From assembly GCA_937928755.1 (NCBI GenBank), contig CALEZI010000117.1, positions 21,541-85,540 on the forward strand: DNA of 64,000 nucleotides, given 5' to 3'. The position numbers and the translations under genes are program-made. This stretch comes from an uncultured Rhodanobacteraceae bacterium. Its GTDB lineage: Bacteria; Pseudomonadota; Gammaproteobacteria; Xanthomonadales; SZUA-5. A model generated the notes under the pieces. The model was not told the DNA's origin, did no database searches, and saw only the letters and a program-made list of their open reading frames with translations. Position 1 is the first letter of the stretch; each line of letters starts with the position of its first letter. Of the stretch, positions 5,953 to 62,660 are shown in pieces.

Positions 5953-6015
5953 GTGGGAGCGACCTTGCGTCGCGAGTTTCCACAGCCAAAGCTCGCGACA
6001 CAAGGTCGCTCCCAC
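5953..6015. repeat. REP-type palindrome (GTGGGAGCGACCTTGCGTCGCGA ... TCGCGACACAAGGTCGCTCCCAC)
   Basis: Imperfect inverted repeat directly after the rlmF stop. A near-identical copy lies at 24425-24487 and related copies at 9370-9433, 25284-25335 and 39805-39875. Confidence 0.8.
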
Positions 6016-8180: not shown

Positions 8181-8295
8181 GAAGGATGGAAGGGAAATTG
8201 ATTCAATGGCTTAGAGAATGTTCGTTGAGAGTCATGGTCGCCCCTGTCGGTGCGCTTGTTCGCGCATCAAACTGGTGGCGACCATGCGGTCTGCC

Positions 8296-8420
8296 TTTTT
8301 GTCCGCAAAGGACGCAAAGAGAGCCAAGAACCCAGGTGTTGATGTACTGCTTTCCTTTGCGTCCTTTGCGTCCTTTGCGTCCTTTGCGTCCTTTGCGTCC
8401 TTTGCGTCCTTTGCGGAAAA
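8296..8420. repeat. family-A k-mer-arm hairpin element, with 7 perfect tandem copies of TCCTTTGCG (8353-8415)
   Basis: The left arm TTTTTGTCCGCAAAGGACGCAAAGAGAGCCAAGAA has about 3 degenerate units. The right arm is (TCCTTTGCG)x7 followed by GAAAAA. The loop is about 20 nt. Confidence 0.85.
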
Positions 8421-8577
8421 AGCTTTTCTTTCAGATACTTGCGTATTGTCCGGCGAGAGTGGTCACTCGCACCGCTGAACATCCGTCCATGCGGCAGGTC
8501 AACAGATGTTCAACACGCATGCGGGTAAAATGTCGCCCATCGTTGTACTCACCTTGCCTCTTTCAGGAGTGGTCTCC

Positions 8578-9772: not shown

Positions 9773-11902
9773 ATGGCCAGGCAGAAAGAGCTCGCGCTGT
9801 ACCGCAACATCGGGATCATCGCGCACATCGACGCGGGAAAGACCACGACCACCGAGCGCGTGCTTTATTACACGGGTCGCAAGCACCAGATCATTGACGT
9901 CCACGACACCAAGGACGGCAAGAGCAGCACCACGACCGACTACCTGGAGCAGGAAAAGAAGCGCGGCATCACGATTCAGAGCGCCGCGGTCTCGACCGAG
10001 TGGAAGGGTTATCACGTCAACGTGATCGACACCCCGGGACACGTCGACTTCACCATCGAGGTGAATCGTTCCCTGCGCGTGCTCGACGGTGCCGTGGTGG
10101 TGTTCGACGGCGTTGCCGGCGTCGAACCGCAGACCGAGACCAACTGGCGCCTGGCCGACCAGTACGTCGTGCCGCGCATGTGCTACGTCAACAAGATGGA
10201 CCGCATCGGCGCCAACTTCGCCCATTGCGTGAAGGGCATTCGCGATCGCCTCGGCGCTACCGTGGTCATGTGTCAGGTGCCGCTGGGCAGCCAGGACGAA
10301 TTTGTCGGCATGGTCGACCTGGTCGCCGGTGCGGCCTACGTGTGGCACTCCAATGACAAGGACAGCCAGTGGGAAGTCATTCCGCTGGATCAGGTCCGTT
10401 CGCGCTTCAAGTTCACTGTGACCCGCGACGACGAGTACCTCGACAACCTGCAGAAGATGCGCGAAGAAATGATCGAGACCGCGCTCGCCATGGACGACGA
10501 TGCCTTCATGCACTACGTCGAAACCGGCGAGTTCGATGTCGCCAAGCTCAAGGAGTGCATCCGCACGGGAACGGTCGCTGGCAAGCTGGTGCCGGTGCTG
10601 TGCGGCTCCTCGTTCAAGAACAAGGGCGTGCAGCAATTGCTTGACGCAGTCGTCGACTACCTGCCCTACCCCGGCGAGAACGGCGGCATCTCGATGGTCG
10701 ACGAGGACGGCAACGTCCTCGGCAAGCAGGAAGTCCGCGACGACGCGCCGATCCGCGCGCTCGCGTTCAAGGTCATCAACGACCAGTTCGGCACGCTGAC
10801 CTTCACCCGCATCTACTCGGGCGTCATCAAGAAGGGCGACACCTTGATGAACGTCACGCGCGGCAAGAAGGAGCGCGTCGGTCGCATCGTGGAAGTCCAG
10901 GCGAATTCCACCAAGGACATCGAAGAGGCCCGCGCCGGCGACATCGTCGCTTTCGTGTCGATGAAGGACACCGAGACCGGCGACTCGCTGTGCGATCCGG
11001 CGCATCCGGTGCTGCTGGAGCGCATGCGCTTCCCGGACCCGGTGATCAGCGTCTCGGTCGAAGCCAAGACCCGCGACGACATCGACAAGATGTCGGCGGC
11101 GCTCTACAAGATGGCCAAGGCCGACCCGTCGCTGCGCCTGAATGTCGACCCGGAAACCGGCGAGACCGTGCTGCGCGGCATGGGCGAGCTGCACCTGGAA
11201 ATCACCATCGACCGCATGCGCACGGAACTCGGTGTCGAAGCCAACATGGGCAAGCCCAAGGTCAGCTTCCGCGAGGCCTTCGGCCGCACCGTCGAGCACA
11301 TCTACACGCACAAGAAGCAGACTGGCGGTTCGGGTCAGTACGCTGAAGTGAAGATGGTCTTCGAGCCGGGCGAACCGGGCACCGGTGTGGTGTTCGTCGA
11401 CGAGATCGTCGGCGGCCGCATCCCGCGCGAGTTCATTCCGTCGGTCGAGTTCGCGATCAAGACCGAGTCCAAGGCAGGCCAGATCGCCGGCTATGAAGTG
11501 CTCGATTTCAAGGCGCGCCTGATCGACGGCAAGTACCACGACGTCGACTCCTCGGCGCTGGCCTTCGAAATCGCCGGCCGCCATTGCTTCCGCGAAGCGC
11601 ACAAGATGAGCAAGCCCAAGCTGCTCGAACCGATGATGCGCATCGAGGTGGTGACCGAGTCCGAATTCCTCGGCGACGTCATCGGCGACATGAACCGCCG
11701 TCGTGGCCAGGTCATCGACCAGGGTACCAAGGGCACCGCAGCCTTCGTTCACGGCTTCGTGCCGCTGGCCGAGATGTTCGGCTACATCAACTATCTGCGT
11801 TCCGCCACCCGCGGCCGCGGCACCTTCTCGATGGAGTTCAACAACTACTCCGAAGTGCCGGCTGGCCTGGTCGACAAGTTGATGGAAAAAGAAGCGAAGT
11901 AA
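9773..11902 (+). CDS. EF-G family translational GTPase (stand-alone paralogue, not in an str operon context)
   Basis: G1 AHIDAGKTT, G3 DTPGHVDF and G4 NKMD are present, with full EF-G domain order through the C-terminal GRG.FSMEF. The region after G1 is atypical (VHDTKDGKSSTTTDYLEQEKKRGITI). Confidence 0.85.
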   Translation: MARQKELALYRNIGIIAHIDAGKTTTTERVLYYTGRKHQIIDVHDTKDGKSSTTTDYLEQEKKRGITIQSAAVSTEWKGYHVNVIDTPGHVDFTIEVNRSLRVLDGAVVVFDGVAGVEPQTETNWRLADQYVVPRMCYVNKMDRIGANFAHCVKGIRDRLGATVVMCQVPLGSQDEFVGMVDLVAGAAYVWHSNDKDSQWEVIPLDQVRSRFKFTVTRDDEYLDNLQKMREEMIETALAMDDDAFMHYVETGEFDVAKLKECIRTGTVAGKLVPVLCGSSFKNKGVQQLLDAVVDYLPYPGENGGISMVDEDGNVLGKQEVRDDAPIRALAFKVINDQFGTLTFTRIYSGVIKKGDTLMNVTRGKKERVGRIVEVQANSTKDIEEARAGDIVAFVSMKDTETGDSLCDPAHPVLLERMRFPDPVISVSVEAKTRDDIDKMSAALYKMAKADPSLRLNVDPETGETVLRGMGELHLEITIDRMRTELGVEANMGKPKVSFREAFGRTVEHIYTHKKQTGGSGQYAEVKMVFEPGEPGTGVVFVDEIVGGRIPREFIPSVEFAIKTESKAGQIAGYEVLDFKARLIDGKYHDVDSSALAFEIAGRHCFREAHKMSKPKLLEPMMRIEVVTESEFLGDVIGDMNRRRGQVIDQGTKGTAAFVHGFVPLAEMFGYINYLRSATRGRGTFSMEFNNYSEVPAGLVDKLMEKEAK

Positions 11903-16446: not shown

Positions 16447-16582
16447 TTTTTTGTCCGCAAAGGACGCAAAGAACGCAAAGGAGAGCAAAGGCGTCAGGGG
16501 TGCGGCGCATGAACATCGAGCCCCAAAACGCTAACTTTCGCATGGCTTTCTTTGCGTCCTTTGCGTTCTTTGCGAACAAAGA
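16447..16582. repeat. family-A k-mer-arm hairpin element
   Basis: GTCCGCAAAGGACGCAAAGAACGCAAAGGAGAGCAAAGG ... CTTTCTTTGCGTCCTTTGCGTTCTTTGCGAAC, with a loop of about 55 nt. Confidence 0.85.
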
Positions 16583-17824: not shown

Positions 17825-18293
17825 TTGTAGGCCGCTGTGCCGCGTAGCGGCTCACCGGCGCAGCGATCAAAGCGCCGGTGAGCGCGATGAAACTGCGCAC
17901 ACGCGGCCTACAAAAGAACTTGCGCGTACACCCGTGAACCACAGCTCTGGTAGACCGCTGTGCCGCGTAGCGGCTCACCGGCGCAGCGACCAAAGCGCCG
18001 GTGAGCGCGATGAAGCTGCGCACACGCGGCCTACAAGAGCACTTGCGCATACACCCGTGAACCACAGCTCTGGTAGACCGCTGTGCCGCGTAGCGGCTCA
18101 CCGGCGCAGCGACCAAAGCGCCGGTGAGCGCGATGAAGCTGCGCACACGCGGCCTACAAGAGCACTTGCGCATACACCCGTGAACCATCGCTCTGGTAGG
18201 CCGCTGTGCCGCGTAGCGGCTCACCGGCGCTTTCCCTGCGGTCGTGACCAAAGCGCCGGTGAGTGCGATGGAGCTGCGCACACGCGGCCTACA
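17825..18293. repeat. tandem array, about 3.8 copies of a 123-bp unit, each unit a nested hairpin
   Basis: Units start at 17825, 17948, 18071 and 18194. Units 2 and 3 differ at only about 2 positions. Each has an inner stem GCTCACCGGCGC/GCGCCGGTGAGC and outer GTAGGCCGC...GCGGCCTAC. Unit 4 carries a small indel. Confidence 0.9.
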
Positions 18294-24345: not shown

Positions 24346-24424
24346 TTCCCTGCACTCTCCGTCCGAGCCTTCGGCACATTGTAGCGACAACCTGTCTACC
24401 GGTGTCATTCAATGGTGCGGACCT

Positions 24425-24487
24425 GTGGGAGCGACCTTGCGTCGCGCGCTCTCACTTTCAGCGCTCGCGACACAAGGTCGCTCCCAC
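24425..24487. repeat. REP-type palindrome, near-identical to 5953-6015
   Basis: GTGGGAGCGACCTTGCGTCGCGCG ... GCTCGCGACACAAGGTCGCTCCCAC. Confidence 0.8.
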
Positions 24488-24621
24488 ATGGGCCATTGCG
24501 CGAACAAGCGCCGCAGCAGGGATGACCGGACCACTCAAGGATCTCCAACCGCGACACCCGAGCGCCGTTGGTCGTGTCACCATATCCGCCCGTCCCGATC
24601 GCCTGCCGAAGGAATCACCCG

Positions 24622-25283: not shown

Positions 25284-25335
25284 GTGGGAGCGGGTTTATC
25301 CCGCGAAAGCTGTCGCGGAGTAAATCCGCTCCCAC
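25284..25335. repeat. REP-type palindrome (GTGGGAGCGGGTTTATCCCGCGA variant)
   Basis: Inverted repeat immediately after the dioxygenase stop codon. Confidence 0.75.
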
Positions 25336-25404: not shown

Positions 25405-25484
25405 GTAGGTCACCTTGGCCGCGTGGCGGCCTACGTGATAACGCCGACTGTCACGTAGTCTGCTGCGCAGACAACGTGACCTAC
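25405..25484. repeat. 80-bp nested palindrome (GTAGGTCAC...CTACGTGA..TCACGTAG...GTGACCTAC), copy 1
   Basis: Two nested stems, with the outer arm GTAGGTCAC pairing GTGACCTAC. It sits 28 nt downstream of the iorB-like stop. Confidence 0.8.
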
Positions 25485-28424: not shown

Positions 28425-28504
28425 GTAGGTCACGTTGCCTGCGCAGCAGGCTACGTGACGCTGTCCATTGTCACGTAGCCCGCTGCGCAGGCAACGTGAC
28501 CTAC
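28425..28504. repeat. 80-bp nested palindrome, copy 2 (same family as 25405-25484)
   Basis: GTAGGTCACGTTGCCTGCGCAGCAGGCTACGTGACGCTGTCCATTGTCACGTAGCCCGCTGCGCAGGCAACGTGACCTAC. It sits upstream of the iorA-like start. Confidence 0.8.
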
Positions 28505-38087: not shown

Positions 38088-38200
38088 GTTCCGGTTCTTC
38101 TCCTCACAATCATCCGACGGGACGAAGCTCTTGAGGGAGCGACGTGCACGTCGCGACCGATCGCCCGCCGGGGGCCGTGGTCGCGACGTTCACGTCGGTC

Positions 38201-38800
38201 CTACAAAATCGAGCTGTTCTTTGCGATTTGCCGATTGTCCAGCGTCGTGTCGGGTACCCTGCCCCCGAACACTCGCTCCTTCATCTCCAGCAACTTGACC
38301 ACCTTGCCGCCGAGCGCCATCAGCGACTGCAGGGTTTCCGGTGACAGCTTGCGTACCTCGGCGAACCAGTCGGTGATCTGCTCGATCAACTCGTGCATGC
38401 GCCGCATGCGCTCCTGCGCGTAGACGTCCTCCGGGGAACCGGCCGTCTCCAGCAAGGCATCGCGCAGCATCGACAGCGTTGGATCGACCTCGCGCCGCTG
38501 GCGTTCCTCGGCGAGCGTGCGGAAGATCTGCCACACATCCTCGGGCGCGCTGAAAAAGTCGCGACGATCGCTCGGCCGATGTTCCAGCTTGACCAGACGC
38601 CAGGATTGCAGCTCTTTCAAGCCCATGCTGACGTTGGAGCGCGACACGCCGAGGCGCTCGACGATGTCGTCGGCGGTCAGCGCATCGCGACTGATGTAGA
38701 GCACGGCGTAGATCTGCCCAACCGTTCGATTGATTCCCCAACGGCTGCCCATCTCACCGAAGTGCAGCACAAAGGACTGGCTCAGCGGATGCAGGTTCAT
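38201..38800 (-). CDS. GbsR/MarR-type winged-helix transcriptional regulator
   Basis: GINRTVGQIYAVLYIS...LTADDIVERLGVSRSNVSMGLKELQSWRLV matches the GbsR-family wHTH as I recall it. It is co-directional with and upstream of cydAB. Confidence 0.7.
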   Translation of the reverse strand: MNLHPLSQSFVLHFGEMGSRWGINRTVGQIYAVLYISRDALTADDIVERLGVSRSNVSMGLKELQSWRLVKLEHRPSDRRDFFSAPEDVWQIFRTLAEERQRREVDPTLSMLRDALLETAGSPEDVYAQERMRRMHELIEQITDWFAEVRKLSPETLQSLMALGGKVVKLLEMKERVFGGRVPDTTLDNRQIAKNSSIL

Positions 38801-38945: not shown

Positions 38946-39080
38946 TTCTTGTCCGCCAAGGACGTAAAGAACGCAAAGGAAGTCAAGGGCTTGCTCGGAG
39001 ATGCCGGCCAGTTGGCACTTGCTGACAACCGTTGTCTTTCTGCTCTCCTTTGCGTCCTTTGCGTCCTTTGCGGACCAAAG
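38946..39080. repeat. family-A k-mer-arm hairpin element
   Basis: GTCCGCCAAGGACGTAAAGAACGCAAAGGAAGTCAAGGG ... CTCCTTTGCGTCCTTTGCGTCCTTTGCGGAC, with a loop of about 50 nt. Confidence 0.85.
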
Positions 39081-39774: not shown

Positions 39775-39804
39775 GCGTGAACCCCCGCGTTCACCCGCTT
39801 CACT

Positions 39805-39875
39805 GTGGGAGCGGGTTCACCCCGCGATTTTTGCGTAAACCTGGCCAGAAGCTCGCGGGATGAACCCGCTCCCAC
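39805..39875. repeat. REP-type palindrome (GTGGGAGCGGGTTCACCCCGCGA variant)
   Basis: GTGGGAGCGGGTTCACCCCGCGA ... TCGCGGGATGAACCCGCTCCCAC, between the receptor stop and the piuC start. Confidence 0.75.
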
Positions 39876-39901
39876 AAGAGCAACCACAATCAACAGCCCG
39901 T

Positions 39902-53944: not shown

Positions 53945-54068
53945 TTATCCGCAAAAGACGCAAAAGACGCAAAGGACGCAAAGAAAGCAGGAACGCGAAC
54001 AGTGGCCATGTAACTTTCCCTGCTCCCCTTTGCGTCCTTTGCGTCCTTTGCGTCCTTTGCGGACAAAA
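53945..54068. repeat. family-A k-mer-arm hairpin element (best-preserved copy)
   Basis: ATCCGCAAAAGACGCAAAAGACGCAAAGGACGCAAAGAAAGCAGG ... CCTGCTCCCCTTTGCGTCCTTTGCGTCCTTTGCGTCCTTTGCGGAC, with a loop of about 28 nt. Confidence 0.9.
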
Positions 54069-55143: not shown

Positions 55144-55668
55144 TCAGTTGCCCAAAGGCTTGGCGTAGACCTCGAACCACAGGTCCTGACGCTTGGGAAG
55201 TCCGAATCGTTCGTCGCCGTAGGGAAACGGTGCACGCTCGCCGGTCGCCGTGTAACCGCGCCGCTGATAAAAGGCGATCAGCTCGCTACGCGTCCAGATC
55301 ACCGTCATGCGCACGCTGCCCACCTTCCAGCTTGCCGCAAGGCGCTCACATTCGCGCAGGATGGCATCGCCGATGCCCTGTCCCTGCAGGCCAGGTCGCA
55401 CCGCGAACATGCCGAAGTACGCCGCATCGCCCTGCCGCTCCAGATTGGCGCAGCCCAGCAACTCGCCATCGCGCTCCGCCAGCACGATGACCGAGCCATC
55501 CTTGTCGATGGTGGCGCGCAGCCCATCGCAATCCGTCCGCTGGCCATCGAGCAGATCGGCCTCGGTGGTCCAGCCCTGGCGACTGGCGTCGCCGCGATAA
55601 GCGGACTCGACCAGTTCCAGCAGGGCGGGAATGTCGTCGTGCGTGGCGGGGCGGAAGGCGAGGGTCAT
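55144..55668 (-). CDS. GNAT-family N-acetyltransferase
   Basis: The acetyl-CoA motif A is present ([17 protein letters not shown]), and at 174 aa the size fits the family. ATG at 55668. Confidence 0.75.
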
Positions 55669-55718: not shown

Positions 55719-55830
55719 GTGAAACGTTAAATGTCAAACGTCAAACGTCAATTGAAAAGCACGGCGGGCAGCGCTTTTCGTTTCACGTTTCACGTTTCAC
55801 GTTTCACACCTTTCACCTTTCACGTTTCAC
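55719..55830. repeat. k-mer-arm hairpin element, type B (7-mer GTGAAAC/GTCAAAC arms)
   Basis: Left arm GTGAAACGTTAAATGTCAAACGTCAAACGTCAATTGAAAAGC, a 12-nt loop, and right arm GCTTTTC(GTTTCAC)x4 ACCTTTCACCTTTCACGTTTCAC. The right arm overlaps the last codons and the stop of ispG. Confidence 0.8.
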
Positions 55831-57091
55831 CAATGCTTGCCTCACGACTTCCGATCACCGGGTACTTCGCCGCCACGTATGCCTCGATCATCCCCACAAA
55901 CTCCTCGCTGATGCGCTCGCCGCGCAGGGTCGCCACCTTGACGCCATCGATGAACACCGGGGCCGCGGGACTTTCGCCGGTGCCGGGCAAGCTGATGCCG
56001 ATATTCGCCTGTTTGCTCTCGCCGGGCCCGTTGACGATGCAGCCCATCACCGCGAGGGTCAAATCCTCCACGCCGCGATGCCGCAGGCGCCATTCGGGCA
56101 TGCGCGCGCGCACATGGTCTTGCACCGTCTTGGCCAGTTCCTGGAAGAAGCTGCTGGTGGTGCGGCCGCAACCCGGGCAGGCGGTGACCATCGGCGTGAA
56201 CGCGCGCAGTCCCATGGTCTGCAACAACTCCTGGGCGACGATCACTTCGGTGCTGCGGCTTTCGCCGGGCTCGGGCGTCAGCGAAATGCGGATGGTGTCG
56301 CCGATGCCTTCCTGCAGCAGCACCGCCAGCGCCGCGGTGGAGGCGACAATGCCCTTGCTGCCCATGCCGGCCTCGGTCAGGCCAAGGTGCAAGGGATAAT
56401 CGCTGCGACGCGCCAGCTCACGGTAAACGGCGATCAGCTCCTGCACCCCGCTGACCTTGCACGAGATGACGATCCGATTGGCCGGCAGGCCGATTTCCTC
56501 GGCCTTCGCCGCGCTCAGCAGTGCCGACTGGATCAGCGCCTCGCGCCCGACCGCTGGCGCATCGAGCGGATGCGATGCCTGGGCATTGTGATCCATCAGG
56601 CGCGTCAGCAGGGCCTGATCCAGGCTGCCCCAGTTGGCACCGATCCGCACCGGCTTGTCGTATCGGCAGGCCTGTTCGACGATTGTCGCAAACTGCGTAT
56701 CGCGCTTCTGCCCGAAGCCGACGTTGCCCGGATTGATCCGGTACTTTCCGAGCGCCTGGGCGCAATCCGGATAGCGCGTCAACAAGGTGTGCCCGTTGTA
56801 ATGAAAATCGCCGATCAGCGGCACCGATACCGACATCCGATCAAGCTTCTCGCGGATGCGCGGTACGGCAGCGGCAGCCTCGTCGGTATTGACCGTGATC
56901 CGAACCAGTTCCGAGCCGGCACGCCACAACTGCGCGACCTGGCGCGTCGTCGCATCGACGTCGGCGGTGTCGGTATTGGTCATCGACTGCACGACGACCG
57001 GCGCGCCGCCGCCGACCTGCGTCGAGCCGATCTGCACGGCGACGGTATGGCGGCGGGGATGGGAGCCGTACGAGGGTAGCGAAGAAGTCAT
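55820..57091 (-). CDS. ispG: 4-hydroxy-3-methylbut-2-en-1-yl diphosphate synthase
   Basis: [16 protein letters not shown]......[13 protein letters not shown], the cluster ligands CPGCGRT, and [12 protein letters not shown] at 57091. Confidence 0.9.
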
Positions 57092-57095
57092 TTTT

Positions 57096-57292
57096 GAGAA
57101 GCGGGGCAAGGGGCAGGGGGCAAGGGAAATGGCGCAAAGCTTCGTTTGCAGCGTTGTCGCGGACCGGAGGCTCTGAACGGCACGTGCCCCGCGCAAGGTC
57201 TCAGGCTTGGCGCCCGAAATCGCACGCCGCGACGGTGCCCGTGCATGGCGCAACGGCTGGTCCCCTGCCCCCTGCCCCCTGCCCCGCTCTTC
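57096..57292. repeat. k-mer-arm hairpin element, type C (7-mer GGGGCAG/GGGGCAA arms)
   Basis: The 32-nt arm GAGAAGCGGGGCAAGGGGCAGGGGGCAAGGGA (57096-57127) pairs with TCCCCTGCCCCCTGCCCCCTGCCCCGCTCTTC (57261-57292). The arms are 28/32 complementary, with a 133-nt loop. Confidence 0.8.
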
Positions 57293-57356
57293 ACAGCCTC
57301 GACCTCGTCAACTGAAGTTCCACGCGCGCCTTGATGTCTACCGCGCGCATCACCCC

Positions 57357-59090
57357 TCACACCGTCGACCAGATCTCGTCGAGTTCAGCCGCAGGCGGCG
57401 CTTCCGGTGCCTCGAGCGAGCGACCGGAAATCGGCATGTTGCCGTAGCGGAATTGTTTGTAGGCTCCGGTGTTTTCCAGCAGCTCGAGTGCTTCCAGCGG
57501 CTCGGACAACACGCGAACTTCCATGCCGGTTGAATCGGGCAGACGCAACAACTCAAGGCCGCCGGTCGAATCCAGGATCGATGGAGCCAGCAAGGTCGGA
57601 TGCTGGCTGCCGTCGATCGCCAGTGGCGCCAGCAACAGACCGCGCAGGATCACGCGGCTGGTATGCGCCTCACCGGTGGCGCGAACGGCAACGGCCTCGA
57701 CACGACGGCTGAGCAACTGAACGCCGGCTTCCAGGCTGTCGTTGTTGCCGCCCTTGAGCCAGCGCAGAACTCCAACCATCCAGTCCGGCTGGTCGTCCGC
57801 GTCCTGCGCCGGCGTCGACAATGCCACCAGTTCTCCGACCTTGGCCTTCAGTCCATCGGCGTTCTCCCAGAACAACCGGTAGCCGCCAAGGCTCTGATCG
57901 ACGACGCGCACACGCAGCGGCAACGGCACTGCAGCATCCGAACTGGATTGCGCCCAAGCCGCAGAGCGGTCGCGATCGCTGAGCGTGACCCCGCCGCCCA
58001 GTTCCGATACGAATTCGTTGAAATCGCGCTGTTCGGCAGCCAGGTAGTGCACCGCATGCAGGCCTATGCAGGTGTTCATCAGGTGATTTGCGGGCAGCCG
58101 CGGATGACCCCGTTCGCCGCTGAAACTCCACGCCACGCTGAGTTTTTCGACCACCTCGCCGGACACCTCCGGCCCTTGGCCCAGGCGACCACGCACCGCG
58201 ATCGGGGCGTCGATCGCCGGCAGCACCCGCAACTGATTCTGCAGCGACTGTACCAAACCGCTGCTGTCCAGACGCCAGTAGGGGCCGTCGATCTCCGCGC
58301 GCGGCGACATCGGCGGCGCATCCGAGCGCGGATCGATGACGAACGACCCGATCGCGCCCTTGTGATCGATCTTGCAGTGCGTCGACCAGATCTTGGCGGC
58401 CGCCTCGATGTCGACGATCTCTTTCTGCGTCAGTCGGTACGGATTGCCGATGAAGGTCAGCAGCGTCTGCAGATAGACGCTTTCCGGCGTCAGCGTGATG
58501 CCGGGCACCTGCGGGTCGGTGATTGCCTTGTCCGACAACTGCGCCTCATAGGCAAATCCGGCGAGCCGATGCAGCAAGCCCCAAACGCCAGCCGGAATTT
58601 CGCTGTAGGCGATGTAGCACTTGCTCAGCAATTGCGAGCAATGACTGAGTGCGCGCACCAGCGCCAGCGCCGTGCTGCGGCCGCGCAGGAAAGGCACGCT
58701 GCCGCGCGGGGCGCAATAGTCGTGCACGCAGATCGCGAAACCGAGCGCCAGCTCGCGATGGAAGTCGCGCATCACCGCGCCGATCTGGCGCTTCTGCAGC
58801 GGCAACGGCAACGGCTGTCCGAGCACGTGACGTTCCATGCTGGAAATCACCACCGCCACCGGGTGACGCATCTGCTCGAGTATCTCGACGCGCTGGTTGG
58901 GCTCGACATCCAGCTGGTTGAGTTCCTTCAAGCCGTTGTAGAGCAGGCGGGCGGTGGCGCCGCTGTTGGCCATCGGCAGCGCCTCGATCCACGCCTTGAC
59001 GGCCTTGCCAGTCGTCGGAAACGCATCACGACCGGGTCGCTCGCGCCTGGGAAGTGCCCCCCTGAGCAACTCGAACGCGCTTTCGGCCAT
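57357..59090 (-). CDS. hypothetical 577-aa protein with a C-terminal PilZ-like beta-barrel (possible c-di-GMP receptor)
   Basis: ATG at 59090. The C-terminal third contains LRVRVVDQSLGGYRLFW...GELVAL....WMVGVLRW, which resembles the D.S..G strand pattern of PilZ domains. A canonical RxxxR is not obvious. Confidence 0.5.
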   Translation of the reverse strand: MAESAFELLRGALPRRERPGRDAFPTTGKAVKAWIEALPMANSGATARLLYNGLKELNQLDVEPNQRVEILEQMRHPVAVVISSMERHVLGQPLPLPLQKRQIGAVMRDFHRELALGFAICVHDYCAPRGSVPFLRGRSTALALVRALSHCSQLLSKCYIAYSEIPAGVWGLLHRLAGFAYEAQLSDKAITDPQVPGITLTPESVYLQTLLTFIGNPYRLTQKEIVDIEAAAKIWSTHCKIDHKGAIGSFVIDPRSDAPPMSPRAEIDGPYWRLDSSGLVQSLQNQLRVLPAIDAPIAVRGRLGQGPEVSGEVVEKLSVAWSFSGERGHPRLPANHLMNTCIGLHAVHYLAAEQRDFNEFVSELGGGVTLSDRDRSAAWAQSSSDAAVPLPLRVRVVDQSLGGYRLFWENADGLKAKVGELVALSTPAQDADDQPDWMVGVLRWLKGGNNDSLEAGVQLLSRRVEAVAVRATGEAHTSRVILRGLLLAPLAIDGSQHPTLLAPSILDSTGGLELLRLPDSTGMEVRVLSEPLEALELLENTGAYKQFRYGNMPISGRSLEAPEAPPAAELDEIWSTV

Positions 59091-62537: not shown

Positions 62538-62660
62538 GAAGCGGGAAAAGGGGAAATGGAAAATGGAAAAGGGAAAGGCAACAGCAATGCGCGGGCGCAA
62601 GTCGCACTCTTCGCACCTCCTTTTTCCTTTTTCCTTTTTCCTTTTTCCCCTTCCCCGCCC
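62538..62660. repeat. k-mer-arm hairpin element, type D (7-mer GGAAAAN / CCTTTTT arms)
   Basis: Left arm GAAGCGGGAAAAGGGGAAATGGAAAATGGAAAAGGGAAAGG, and right arm CCTCC(TTTTTCC)x4-like run ending CCCCTTCCCCGCCC. It shares the terminal GAAGCGGG motif with type C. Confidence 0.8.

Follow-up and report, generated by a model that had tools for sequence, protein, structure and literature searches.

In a stretch of 64,000 nucleotides from an uncultured Rhodanobacteraceae bacterium (assembly GCA_937928755.1, contig CALEZI010000117.1, positions 21,541 to 85,540), here called the window, the gene ispG (GcpE) lies between two hairpin elements which have the same architecture, i.e. inverted arms of short tandem repeats around an interior, but are built from entirely different 7-mer units. 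The question raised by this locus is what kind of element keeps its architecture while its unit changes, and what such a pair may do for the gene in between. We propose that element B (downstream of ispG) and element C (upstream) belong to a lineage-wide superfamily of palindromic satellite-armed elements, which likely act as transcribed stem-loops in the manner of repetitive extragenic palindromic (REP) sequences and have a putative role in segmental mRNA stability. We give this reading a probability of about 0.5.

Both hairpins had been described in an earlier note made from the sequence alone, and the positions and description given there are correct. Coordinates are collected in Table 1; other loci used for comparison are denoted by L and a number. 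The arms of element B are 29 nt long and 86% complementary, with a period of 7 and 4.3 and 7.1 copies according to Tandem Repeats Finder (TRF). As ispG-sense RNA the element folds at -42.9 kcal/mol (z = -4.66), and 0 of 200 shuffles were as good. Element C has arms of 33 nt each, spaced 133 nt and 88% complementary, also of period 7 (3.4 copies in both arms, TRF). Its ispG-sense RNA folds at -125.9 kcal/mol (z = -7.29) with no shuffle as good, and in three species tested the sense RNA was 11-18 kcal/mol more stable than the antisense RNA. Between the window and L083 the arms of element C are nearly identical, and the interior differs at many more positions. Among L085, L204 and L205, 7 of 9 substitutions in these arms leave a G.U pair in the sense strand, and one gives A.C.

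The right arm of element B overlaps the end of ispG, as stated in the earlier note: the last three codons (G-E-T) and the stop codon lie inside it. The ispG product of the window has 423 amino acids (aa), 3-8 aa more than most relatives, and the seven syntenic relatives have 416-420 aa. It is longer because the ancestral TGA (in L083, positions 11232-11262, read as ...GGG ATG CCC TGA GGC AAA...) is still present in the window (55820-55860) but has lost its frame through a 1-nt indel. The reading frame extends 7 codons past the ancestral TGA, to a TGA in the first GTGAAAC unit, and the in-frame stop that now ends ispG is thus supplied by the element B arm (55780-55830). With a heptamer repeat that contains TGA, each of the three frames meets a stop codon within three units; the ispG of L206, too, stops at a TAG within the AGTGAGT array. 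At the other end of the gene, a Shine-Dalgarno (SD) sequence was not recognisable before ispG in the four species read (window 57092-57100, L083, L085 and L086), and the 20 nt preceding the ATG are C/T-rich in these four.

Inverted arms of tandem repeats are above chance and specific to this lineage. We used a rotation-aware scan in which TRF tracts (period 5-12, at least 2.5 copies) were paired with a reverse-complement tract within 300 nt. The scan returned 5 pairs for the window, whereas 100 dinucleotide shuffles gave 0, so the elements are more frequent than in shuffled sequence, contrary to one outcome that the earlier note had allowed for. As a negative control, the surroundings of ispG in 80 other proteobacterial genomes (1.49 Mb; relatives at 67-78% identity, among the matches listed) contained 0 pairs. 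With two more copies of a 9-mer family that have one degenerate arm, the total in the window is seven, and all seven lie between co-directional genes. No match above the gathering score was found with Rfam 15 over the whole window, and the tRNA scan found nothing. Exact-match metagenome contigs were identical to the window and showed no polymorphism. The ispG of the window is most similar to that of metagenome-assembled genomes labelled Rhodanobacteraceae/Lysobacterales.

The breadth of the class was determined from metagenomes scanned with the 9-mer-family pattern. This gave 80 loci with a total of 550 kb, many of them from the same or sister populations and none overlapping the window. These loci and the syntenic loci described below make up 0.7 Mb of lineage DNA, in which our census counted 76 non-redundant elements with at least 13 unit types and periods of 5-9 nt. 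The units are a 9-mer (CGCAAAGGA), an 8-mer (ACGAGGGC), a 6-mer (GGTGTT), a 5-mer (CGCGG) and the 7-mers GTGAAAC, GGGGCAG/Y, GGAAAAA/GGGAAAA, AGTGAGT/AGTGAAT, GTCGTTG, CGGGACT, AGCCGGC, CGGTAGC and AGCTATC. One architecture with differing units, the central point of the earlier note, is therefore borne out, and so is its view that a single selfish sequence is insufficient, as one fixed sequence cannot account for so many units.

A common set of rules runs through the census. The 5' arm has more G than C in 68 of the 76 elements and is purine-rich in 73; element C is strongly G-first (+0.54), and element B is near neutral in G-C yet purine-rich. This polarity belongs to the element itself and not to a strand, since the two strands of an inverted repeat read the same. 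The median arm length is 26-34 nt at periods of 6-9, usually with 3-5 copies (20 and 25 nt in the only element of period 5), and loops range from 17 to 176 nt. Of the flanking gene pairs, 55 are co-directional, 6 convergent and 3 divergent, and the median distance from the upstream stop codon to the start of the arm is 37 nt. Among 27 independent non-9-mer elements, 12 have the motif [AG]AGAGC at the boundary of an arm, where 1.1 are expected, and AAGAGC is 6.5-fold concentrated within elements. Shared polarity, arm-length range and AAGAGC junction point to a related superfamily rather than to independent births. Two other uses of the junction motif were considered and rejected. GAAGAGC as an avoided restriction-like site was suggested by 3 occurrences in the window against 10 in dinucleotide shuffles, but the observed/expected ratio is 1.01 under a Markov model over the 0.7 Mb; GAGAGC as a marker of transcription orientation in the 9-mer family proved symmetric (7 vs 6).

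Every unit type examined is multi-copy. Units that recur at unrelated loci are GTGAAAC, GGGGCAG/GGGGCAC, GGAAAAA, AGTGAGT, ACGAGGGC, GGTGTT and the 9-mer. Six of the seven relatives have GTGAAAC at two sites each (one or none in the window and L204), and this unit is also found in L131 and in phage contigs; a second GGGGCAC site occurs in L207, GGAAAAA also in L135 and L144, AGTGAGT also in L151 and L164, and ACGAGGGC was found four times. Some units appear to be related through single changes (GGGGCAG, GGGGCAC and GAGGGCAC; GTGAAAC, GTGAAAG, AGTGAAT and AGTGAGT), and the 7-mer CGCAAAG of a viral contig seems to be related to the 9-mer CGCAAAGGA. A literature search by unit sequence gave no relevant match.

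These observations bear on an explanation close to that of the earlier note, which had supposed a generic process making inverted arms from arbitrary repeats. Arms would be built in place without regard to sequence, by fold-back or template-switch copying or by selection on pairing alone, so that each site invents its own unit. Quasipalindrome template switching is an established mutational mechanism, a single architecture is indeed common to many unrelated-looking units, and units at the same site differ between species with both arms matching (GGGGCAG/CTGCCCC vs GGGGCAY/RTGCCCC; GTGAAAC vs AGTGAAT vs AGTGAGT). Against this, the same units occur at unrelated loci, in other genomes and in phages, and the junction motif is common to unit types. 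The units can thus not be called arbitrary: they recur, and polarity, arm length and AAGAGC are shared. Building in place is, in our opinion, quite improbable, and two further lines of evidence against it are given below.

The first comes from orthologous sites. We compared eight species, i.e. the window, L083, L085, L086 and L204-L207, whose flanking genes have 74-91% DNA identity to the window; judged by this identity, the eight syntenic loci represent different species of one genus-level group. The four sites (Table 1) are usually occupied, but by different units, a REPIN (a hairpin formed by two inverted REPs) or nothing, and the site downstream of ispG is filled in all eight species. The REPIN (L204, 7744-7907) consists of two inverted GTAGGAGCGACG REPs about 110 nt apart and replaces the tandem-repeat hairpin downstream of ispG; in L085 a REP-like palindrome lies within the loop of the AGTGAAT element. 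Upstream of ispG in L206 (6181-6500), a 5' arm of the 9-mer family (GGACGCAAA) faces a C-type 3' arm (CCCTTGCCCCGCCTTGCC), and this chimeric element suggests exchange between unit families. Since the site between the dihydroorotate (DHO) dehydrogenase and MurB genes is vacant in L205-L207, the 9-mer element there was gained.

Conservation is far stronger in the arms than in the loops: six species carry a near-invariant sense 5' arm (GGTAAAACGTGAAAGGTGAAACGTGAA) at the cytochrome site, and their loops there cannot be aligned. The two arms of an element change copy number by slippage independently of each other: about 13 GTTTRAC units in one arm of L086 stand against 3 in the opposite arm, and the window copy A1 of the 9-mer family has 7 against 2, with 3-5 against 3-4 in its sister copies. 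Such one-arm expansion of a non-pairing variant unit (L118 and L086) is not expected if arms are built by pairing. De novo birth was not seen, and the one clear gain is a member of the 9-mer family. We considered whether the D-type at the cytochrome site had evolved in place from a GTGAAAC-type element via an inverted loop, and rejected this, as the similarity of the interiors is not significant (z = 1.8-2.1); as the two types at this site have interiors without significant homology, replacement and in-place turnover look the same there, and the site lends in-place building no support.

The second line of evidence is the 9-mer family (family A), which has consensus ends TTTTTGT|CCGC...GCGG|ACAAAA with a T-run on the 5' side and an A-run on the 3' side. 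In 36 anchored copies, complementarity between arms of the same copy was 28.33 of 36 positions, compared with 28.63 between copies, and 8230 of 10000 permutations (82%) were at least as good. This lack of excess complementarity within copies speaks against hairpin-driven compensation and arm-to-arm conversion in this family, and against a sequence-blind process driven by structure; it favours descent from, or selection toward, the family consensus. The aligned copies have complementary T-run/A-run flanks and no direct repeats, except that GAAGC lies on either side of one nested copy. This nested copy is a full element (TGTCCGCAAAGAA...CCTTTGCGGACA; L113, 6590-6790) found between nuoF and nuoG, within a CGGGACT hairpin loop. 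In family A, orientation is unbiased with respect to gene direction. Its pattern had no match in the viral contigs. One subfamily, which includes the window copy A1, has a conserved interior and flanks (about 80 nt and about 35 nt) and forms a mosaic repeat of about 230 bp. Copies of this mosaic are found at window 8215-8470 and in L098, L126, L146, L149, L144, L096 and L160, with the motif ATGTTYGGTGAGAG flanking both sides, and at some loci the mosaic forms chains with REPs, an organisation like that of bacterial interspersed mosaic elements (BIMEs). A BLAST search of the A1 mosaic against plasmids gave no match.

Much of this would also be expected of selfish or neutral palindromes without a host role, copied by an enzyme like REPs, REPINs or MITEs (miniature inverted-repeat transposable elements) and accumulating in tolerant intergenic spots. 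The multi-copy nature of all unit types examined, 9-mer arms that resemble the consensus arm by arm without within-copy compensation, the subfamily with conserved interior and flanks, the gain at the DHO-dehydrogenase/MurB site, the nested insertion, the REPIN that can take the same site and the richness of the window in REP-like palindromes are all in line with it. What it explains less well is that arms are near-invariant though genes differ by 10-25% and loops decay, that the site downstream of ispG is occupied throughout the eight species, that polarity and arm-length rules are strict across units, and that pairs bracket single structural genes in phages. No transposase, RAYT (REP-associated tyrosine transposase) or clear target-site duplication was found in the genes and loci scanned. 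Neither are the types conventional MITEs each with a conserved interior, the second outcome allowed for by the earlier note, as one 9-mer subfamily only has this property. We regard a purely selfish origin as possible, if somewhat unlikely.

The genomic context favours a role in transcribed RNA. Elements lie inside operons, i.e. between nuoD/E and nuoF/G in L113 and within the AAA_5/DUF5682/VWA cluster of the window. A scan of viral contigs for (GTGAAAC)x3 gave 15 matches. The contig L219 represents a genuine phage late region, and its major head gene (PHROG 212, E = 7e-37) has a GTGAAAC hairpin on either side; a third hairpin lies about 1.7 kb further on, in the predicted 5' end of the open reading frame (ORF) of the minor head protein, beside the portal gene. 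A same-type hairpin pair brackets a single gene in the tail module of both L218 and L213; for the latter gene no Pfam assignment was obtained. A phage hairpin searched with BLAST gave no match among isolate phages. More generally, hairpin pairs with the same unit 0.6-2 kb apart often bracket one to three genes (Table 1), and this could reflect local copying or a function in bracketing cistrons. A gene for a mobilising enzyme was sought between same-type pairs; the genes there are nuoE/F, cobO, rlmH and rsfS.

A hairpin near a stop codon may also be a transcription terminator or attenuator, possibly bidirectional, with a stem that is repetitive by chance. Elements are found downstream of genes, types A, B and D have a T-rich 3' arm, and a purine-rich 5' side with a pyrimidine-rich 3' side matches the polarity of A-tract, stem and U-tract; U-tract-less hairpins have reportedly been proposed as terminators in GC-rich bacteria. 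Yet there was no terminator-like call at any element. The 3' flanks are A- or C-rich and not U-rich (family A consensus ...GCGGACAAAA; element B CACTTCCCCCC; element C CTCAAAA-ATG), family A has its T-run on the 5' side, types C and F are without T-runs, loops are as long as 17-176 nt, and elements are located within the nuo operon and within phage late operons. Termination has, on this evidence, only a very slight chance of being the explanation.

It is the lack of U-tracts, the operon-internal position and the bracketing of the phage major-head gene that favour a REP-like role, and a stem-loop in mRNA is the best-supported, although unproven, reading. Following this reading, a library of related unit variants would spread by copying or ectopic conversion and be homogenised by slippage, much like satellite DNA. 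An element transcribed with its operon would fold into a long stem without a 3' U-tract, and the stem would act like a REP as a barrier to 3' exonucleases and/or as a processing site. The bracketed cistron, here ispG, would thereby be given its own mRNA stability. The G-first polarity may be selected, in that a C-rich arm would never be free as nascent RNA and Rho loading inside operons would be avoided. At ispG itself, element C might also gate initiation, as its C/U-rich arm ends 4 nt from an ATG without a Shine-Dalgarno sequence, and element B over the stop codon might also slow terminating ribosomes. The latter is suggested by analogy with REPs within about 15 nt of a stop codon: REPs placed there reportedly slowed terminating ribosomes (Liang, Rudd and Deutscher 2015).

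The earlier note had added that the G-rich arm could form a G-quadruplex (G4). At the level of sequence this holds for element C only: a canonical G4 motif (G3+N1-7 x4) is present on the G-rich strand of each of its arms, on opposite strands. It does not extend to the class, since most unit types, among them GTGAAAC, CGCAAAGGA, GGAAAAA, AGTGAGT and GTCGTTG, are unable to form a G4. Canonical G4 motifs are scarce in the window (6 vs 12.9 +/- 3.6 in local shuffles), and the element C arms make up two of the six. A role at the DNA level, be it through G-quadruplex, i-motif, cruciform or arrays of protein sites that affect replication, supercoiling or the nucleoid, would fit these two motifs in a G4-depleted window, the G4 formed in vitro by (GGGAATC)4 (Rehm et al. 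2015, PMC4692102), the symmetry of the elements with respect to gene direction, including the absence of orientation bias in family A, the weak overall strand bias in folding and the conservation of arms as sequence. It does not fit the unit types without G4 capacity or the clear sense-RNA bias of element C, and periods of 5-9 bp are unlike the helical repeat expected for binding-site arrays on duplex DNA. We consider it very improbable.

Several observations weigh against a simple stem-loop role in mRNA. GTGAAAC is also found as unpaired direct arrays just before SD and ATG in phage contigs; in viral contigs, arrays of (GTGAAAC)3-4 terminate in an SD-like purine run 5-8 nt before an ATG (L208 10713, L209 9957, L211 8121, L215 12003 and L221 3758). 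At the cytochrome site, conservation of the sense 5' arm extends to its sequence and is not limited to pairing. Both observations hint at a reader specific for sequence and not simply at a stem. Over the 55 co-directional elements the sense fold was favoured in 32 and the antisense fold in 19, with a mean of -1.9 kcal/mol (Wilcoxon p = 0.077), and G.U pairs numbered 211 vs 180. This weak bias does not establish a class-wide constraint at the RNA level, and G.T is the mildest mismatch in single-stranded DNA too. Arms that are near-invariant among orthologues leave few informative pairs for covariation. The gene calls in the loci are crude (based on GC content at third codon positions, GC3, and the longest ORF), and the AAGAGC junction motif was noticed first and tested post hoc. 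The lack of a transposase, RAYT or clear target-site duplication in the genes and loci scanned tells against the stem-loop reading as well; the 22 window genes searched against Pfam are all housekeeping genes, with about 15 other called genes outside that scan.

In a further and distinctly unlikely interpretation, these are bacterial and phage cis-elements defined by structure and fluid in sequence. The unit would turn over like a satellite library while polarity, arm length (about 26-34 nt) and the AAGAGC junction stay constant, implying a dedicated machinery for reading or propagation. One candidate would be a single-strand-binding factor that measures heptamers with one protein per unit, as reported for CspB, which binds one heptamer per protein (noted in MacGregor 2015, PMC4679880). 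Alternatively, a hairpin-specific nuclease or transposase could use the AAGAGC junction.

Table 1. Coordinates of the ispG elements, other elements and genes of the window, hairpin pairs in other loci, and occupancy of four orthologous sites.
Feature	Locus	Position	Strand	Description
ispG (GcpE), 423 aa	window	55820-57091	-	ATG 57089-57091, TGA 55820-55822
GNAT acetyltransferase gene	window	55144-55668	-	downstream of element B
Element B, arm beside downstream GNAT gene	window	55719-55753		five 7-mers GTGAAAC GTTAAAT GTCAAAC GTCAAAC GTCAATT; 3' arm in ispG-sense RNA
Element B, core hairpin	window	55754-55779		GAAAAGC / 12-nt loop / GCTTTTC
Element B, arm over ispG end	window	55780-55830		(GTTTCAC)x4, then ACCTTTC ACCTTTC ACGTTTCAC (CCTTTCA variants); 5' arm in ispG-sense RNA
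Element C, arm 4 nt from ispG ATG	window	57095-57127		GGGGCAA/GGGGCAG units on + strand; C/U-rich 3' arm in ispG-sense RNA; G4 motif on + strand
Element C, interior	window	57128-57260		133 nt, strongly structured by itself; clearly less conserved than arms (window vs L083)
Element C, distal arm	window	57261-57293		CCCCTGC units on + strand; GAAGAGC-GGGGCAG x3 on ispG-sense strand; G4 motif on minus strand
FimW_N-type gene	window	57357-59090	-	upstream of element C
Element D	window	62538-62660		GGGAAAA/GGAAAAT vs TCCTTTT; between 297-aa gene and multihaem cytochrome gene
Family A copy	window	53945-54066		9-mer CGCAAAGGA arms; between DHO-dehydrogenase and MurB genes
Family A copy	window	38951-39075		
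Family A copy	window	16450-16580		within AAA_5 / DUF5682 / VWA gene cluster
Family A copy A1, mosaic subfamily	window	8298-8421		conserved interior and flanks; 2 units in one arm, 7 in the other
Same-unit pair	L113	4563-4705 and 6607-6770		brackets nuoE-nuoF
Same-unit pair	L095	4162-4252 and 6371-6539		brackets cobO...rsfS
Same-unit pair	L219	1083-1157 and 2129-2210		brackets phage major head gene
Same-unit pair	L218	696-785 and 1859-1953		brackets single phage tail-module gene
Same-unit pair	L213	11100-11159 and 11805-11856		brackets single phage tail-module gene
ispG-downstream site	eight species			GTGAAAC-type in window, L083, L086, L205, L207 (GTGAAAG/GTGAAAA variants); AGTGAAT in L085; (AGTGAGT)x6 in L206; REPIN in L204
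ispG-upstream site	eight species			GGGGCAG in window, L083, L207; GGGGCAC/T (GGGGCAY) in L085, L204, L205; 9-mer-like arm facing C-type arm in L206; nothing in L086
Cytochrome / 297-aa gene site	eight species			GGAAAAA (type D) in window, L204; GTGAAAC/GTGAAAG-type in the other six
DHO-dehydrogenase / MurB site	eight species			9-mer element in four species; different palindrome in L085; empty or genes abutting in L205-L207

The earlier note knew of no described class with inverted arms of this kind, but one exists in the same bacterial order. Rehm et al. 2015 (PMC4692102) counted 186 GGGAATC arrays in X. campestris and described 70-75 inverted pairs in convergent orientation. The arrays were 89-93% intergenic, mostly between co-oriented ORFs and near the upstream ORF, and rare between divergent ORFs; in X. 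campestris and X. citri they had the same neighbour genes, with variable length and sequence, and they were transcribed, with no function assigned at that time. The Xanthomonas pairs resemble ours in having tandem 7-nt units of about 4 copies with converging G-rich strands (G-rich arm 5'), in being intergenic between co-oriented genes and near the upstream ORF, and in keeping their positions while the sequence varies. The Xanthomonas study followed one unit, with a G4 rationale, whereas we find at least 13 unit types, most without G4 capacity; the units that flank ispG are GTGAAAC and GGGGCAG and not GGGAATC, with a G4 motif in element C only. The density here is about 8 times higher (7 in 64 kb vs about 70 pairs in 5 Mb), and unit turnover at orthologous sites, the junction motif and the location in phage late operons were not described in that study. 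Inverted heptamer pairs were thus already known, and what is added here is a much greater diversity of units. An exact (GGGAATC)x5 was observed beside a 9-mer mosaic element in L157 (10725-10760), with no inverted partner within 200 nt; this contig, retrieved with the 9-mer-family pattern and the only locus in our material with GGGAATC, is probably from a related genome.

With REPs, BIMEs and REPINs the elements share abundance, intergenic imperfect palindromes, co-directional genes, operon-internal positions and mosaic arrangements. Like these they would be transcribed stem-loops without U-tracts, which can stabilise upstream mRNA, a role that is likely shared; the decay of REP-containing mRNAs needs RNase R and PNPase (PMC12320835). 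Unlike REPs and REPINs, the elements A, B, C and D have no GTAG/CTAC head, their stems are much longer, and their arms are tandem repeats with a unit that varies by family. Genuine GTAG/GTGGGAGCG REPs do occur in the window, as distinct elements. MITEs are similar in having terminal inverted repeats, in being small, non-coding and multi-copy, and in the conserved interior of the one 9-mer subfamily; here, however, interiors are generally unrelated between copies, and neither a clear target-site duplication nor a parent insertion sequence (IS) was found (36 aligned 9-mer copies).

The short tandemly repeated repetitive (STRR) sequences of cyanobacteria and Beggiatoaceae are intergenic 7-nt arrays too, with lineage-specific units and often before start codons. 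MacGregor 2015 (PMC4679880) described direct TAACTGA heptamer arrays of Beggiatoaceae upstream of start codons, and the direct GTGAAAC arrays of phages before SD and ATG resemble these. STRRs are in contrast almost always direct and not inverted (one inverted case among 170 sets, PMC4679880). Intrinsic terminators share the hairpin downstream of genes with a purine-rich 5' and a pyrimidine-rich 3' side, and differ from the present elements, which have no U-tract, have large loops and lie inside operons. The Drosophila Foldback (FB) elements have long inverted arms of short tandem repeats, and in a satellite 'library' variants are amplified differentially between species. Being eukaryotic and of kilobase scale, FB elements and the satellite library offer an analogy of architecture and dynamics only.

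Other repeats were also observed in the window. Classical REP-like palindromes are common (5953-6015, 24424-24488, 25284-25335, 25405-25484, 28425-28504, 38131-38206 and 39804-39876) and have heads of two types (GTGGGAGCG... and GTAGGTCACG...); their abundance implies a RAYT-type system elsewhere in the genome. At 17827-18230, between the VWA gene and a 987-aa ORF without a Pfam match, a 123-bp unit is repeated in 3.3 copies with 96% identity, each unit containing the palindrome GCTCACCGGCGC...GCGCCGGTGAGC. The cumulative GC skew declines monotonically over all 64 kb, which places the window on a single replichore.

Intergenic heptamer arrays are over-represented in Xanthomonadales and cyanobacteria and have had no assigned function since 2015. 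The lineage studied here constitutes a rich natural experiment, with many unit types per genome, the same sites across eight species and phage copies that bracket structural genes; polarity, arm length, position and junction motif are held constant, while unit sequence, copy number and loop are free. For annotators there is a caution, as repeats of this kind can give genes such as ispG their stop codon. If the elements were only selfish, they would be a new kind of REP-like repeat with satellite dynamics. If they do set the stability of mRNA segments, they would provide a tunable expression dial, because slippage alters the length of the stem.

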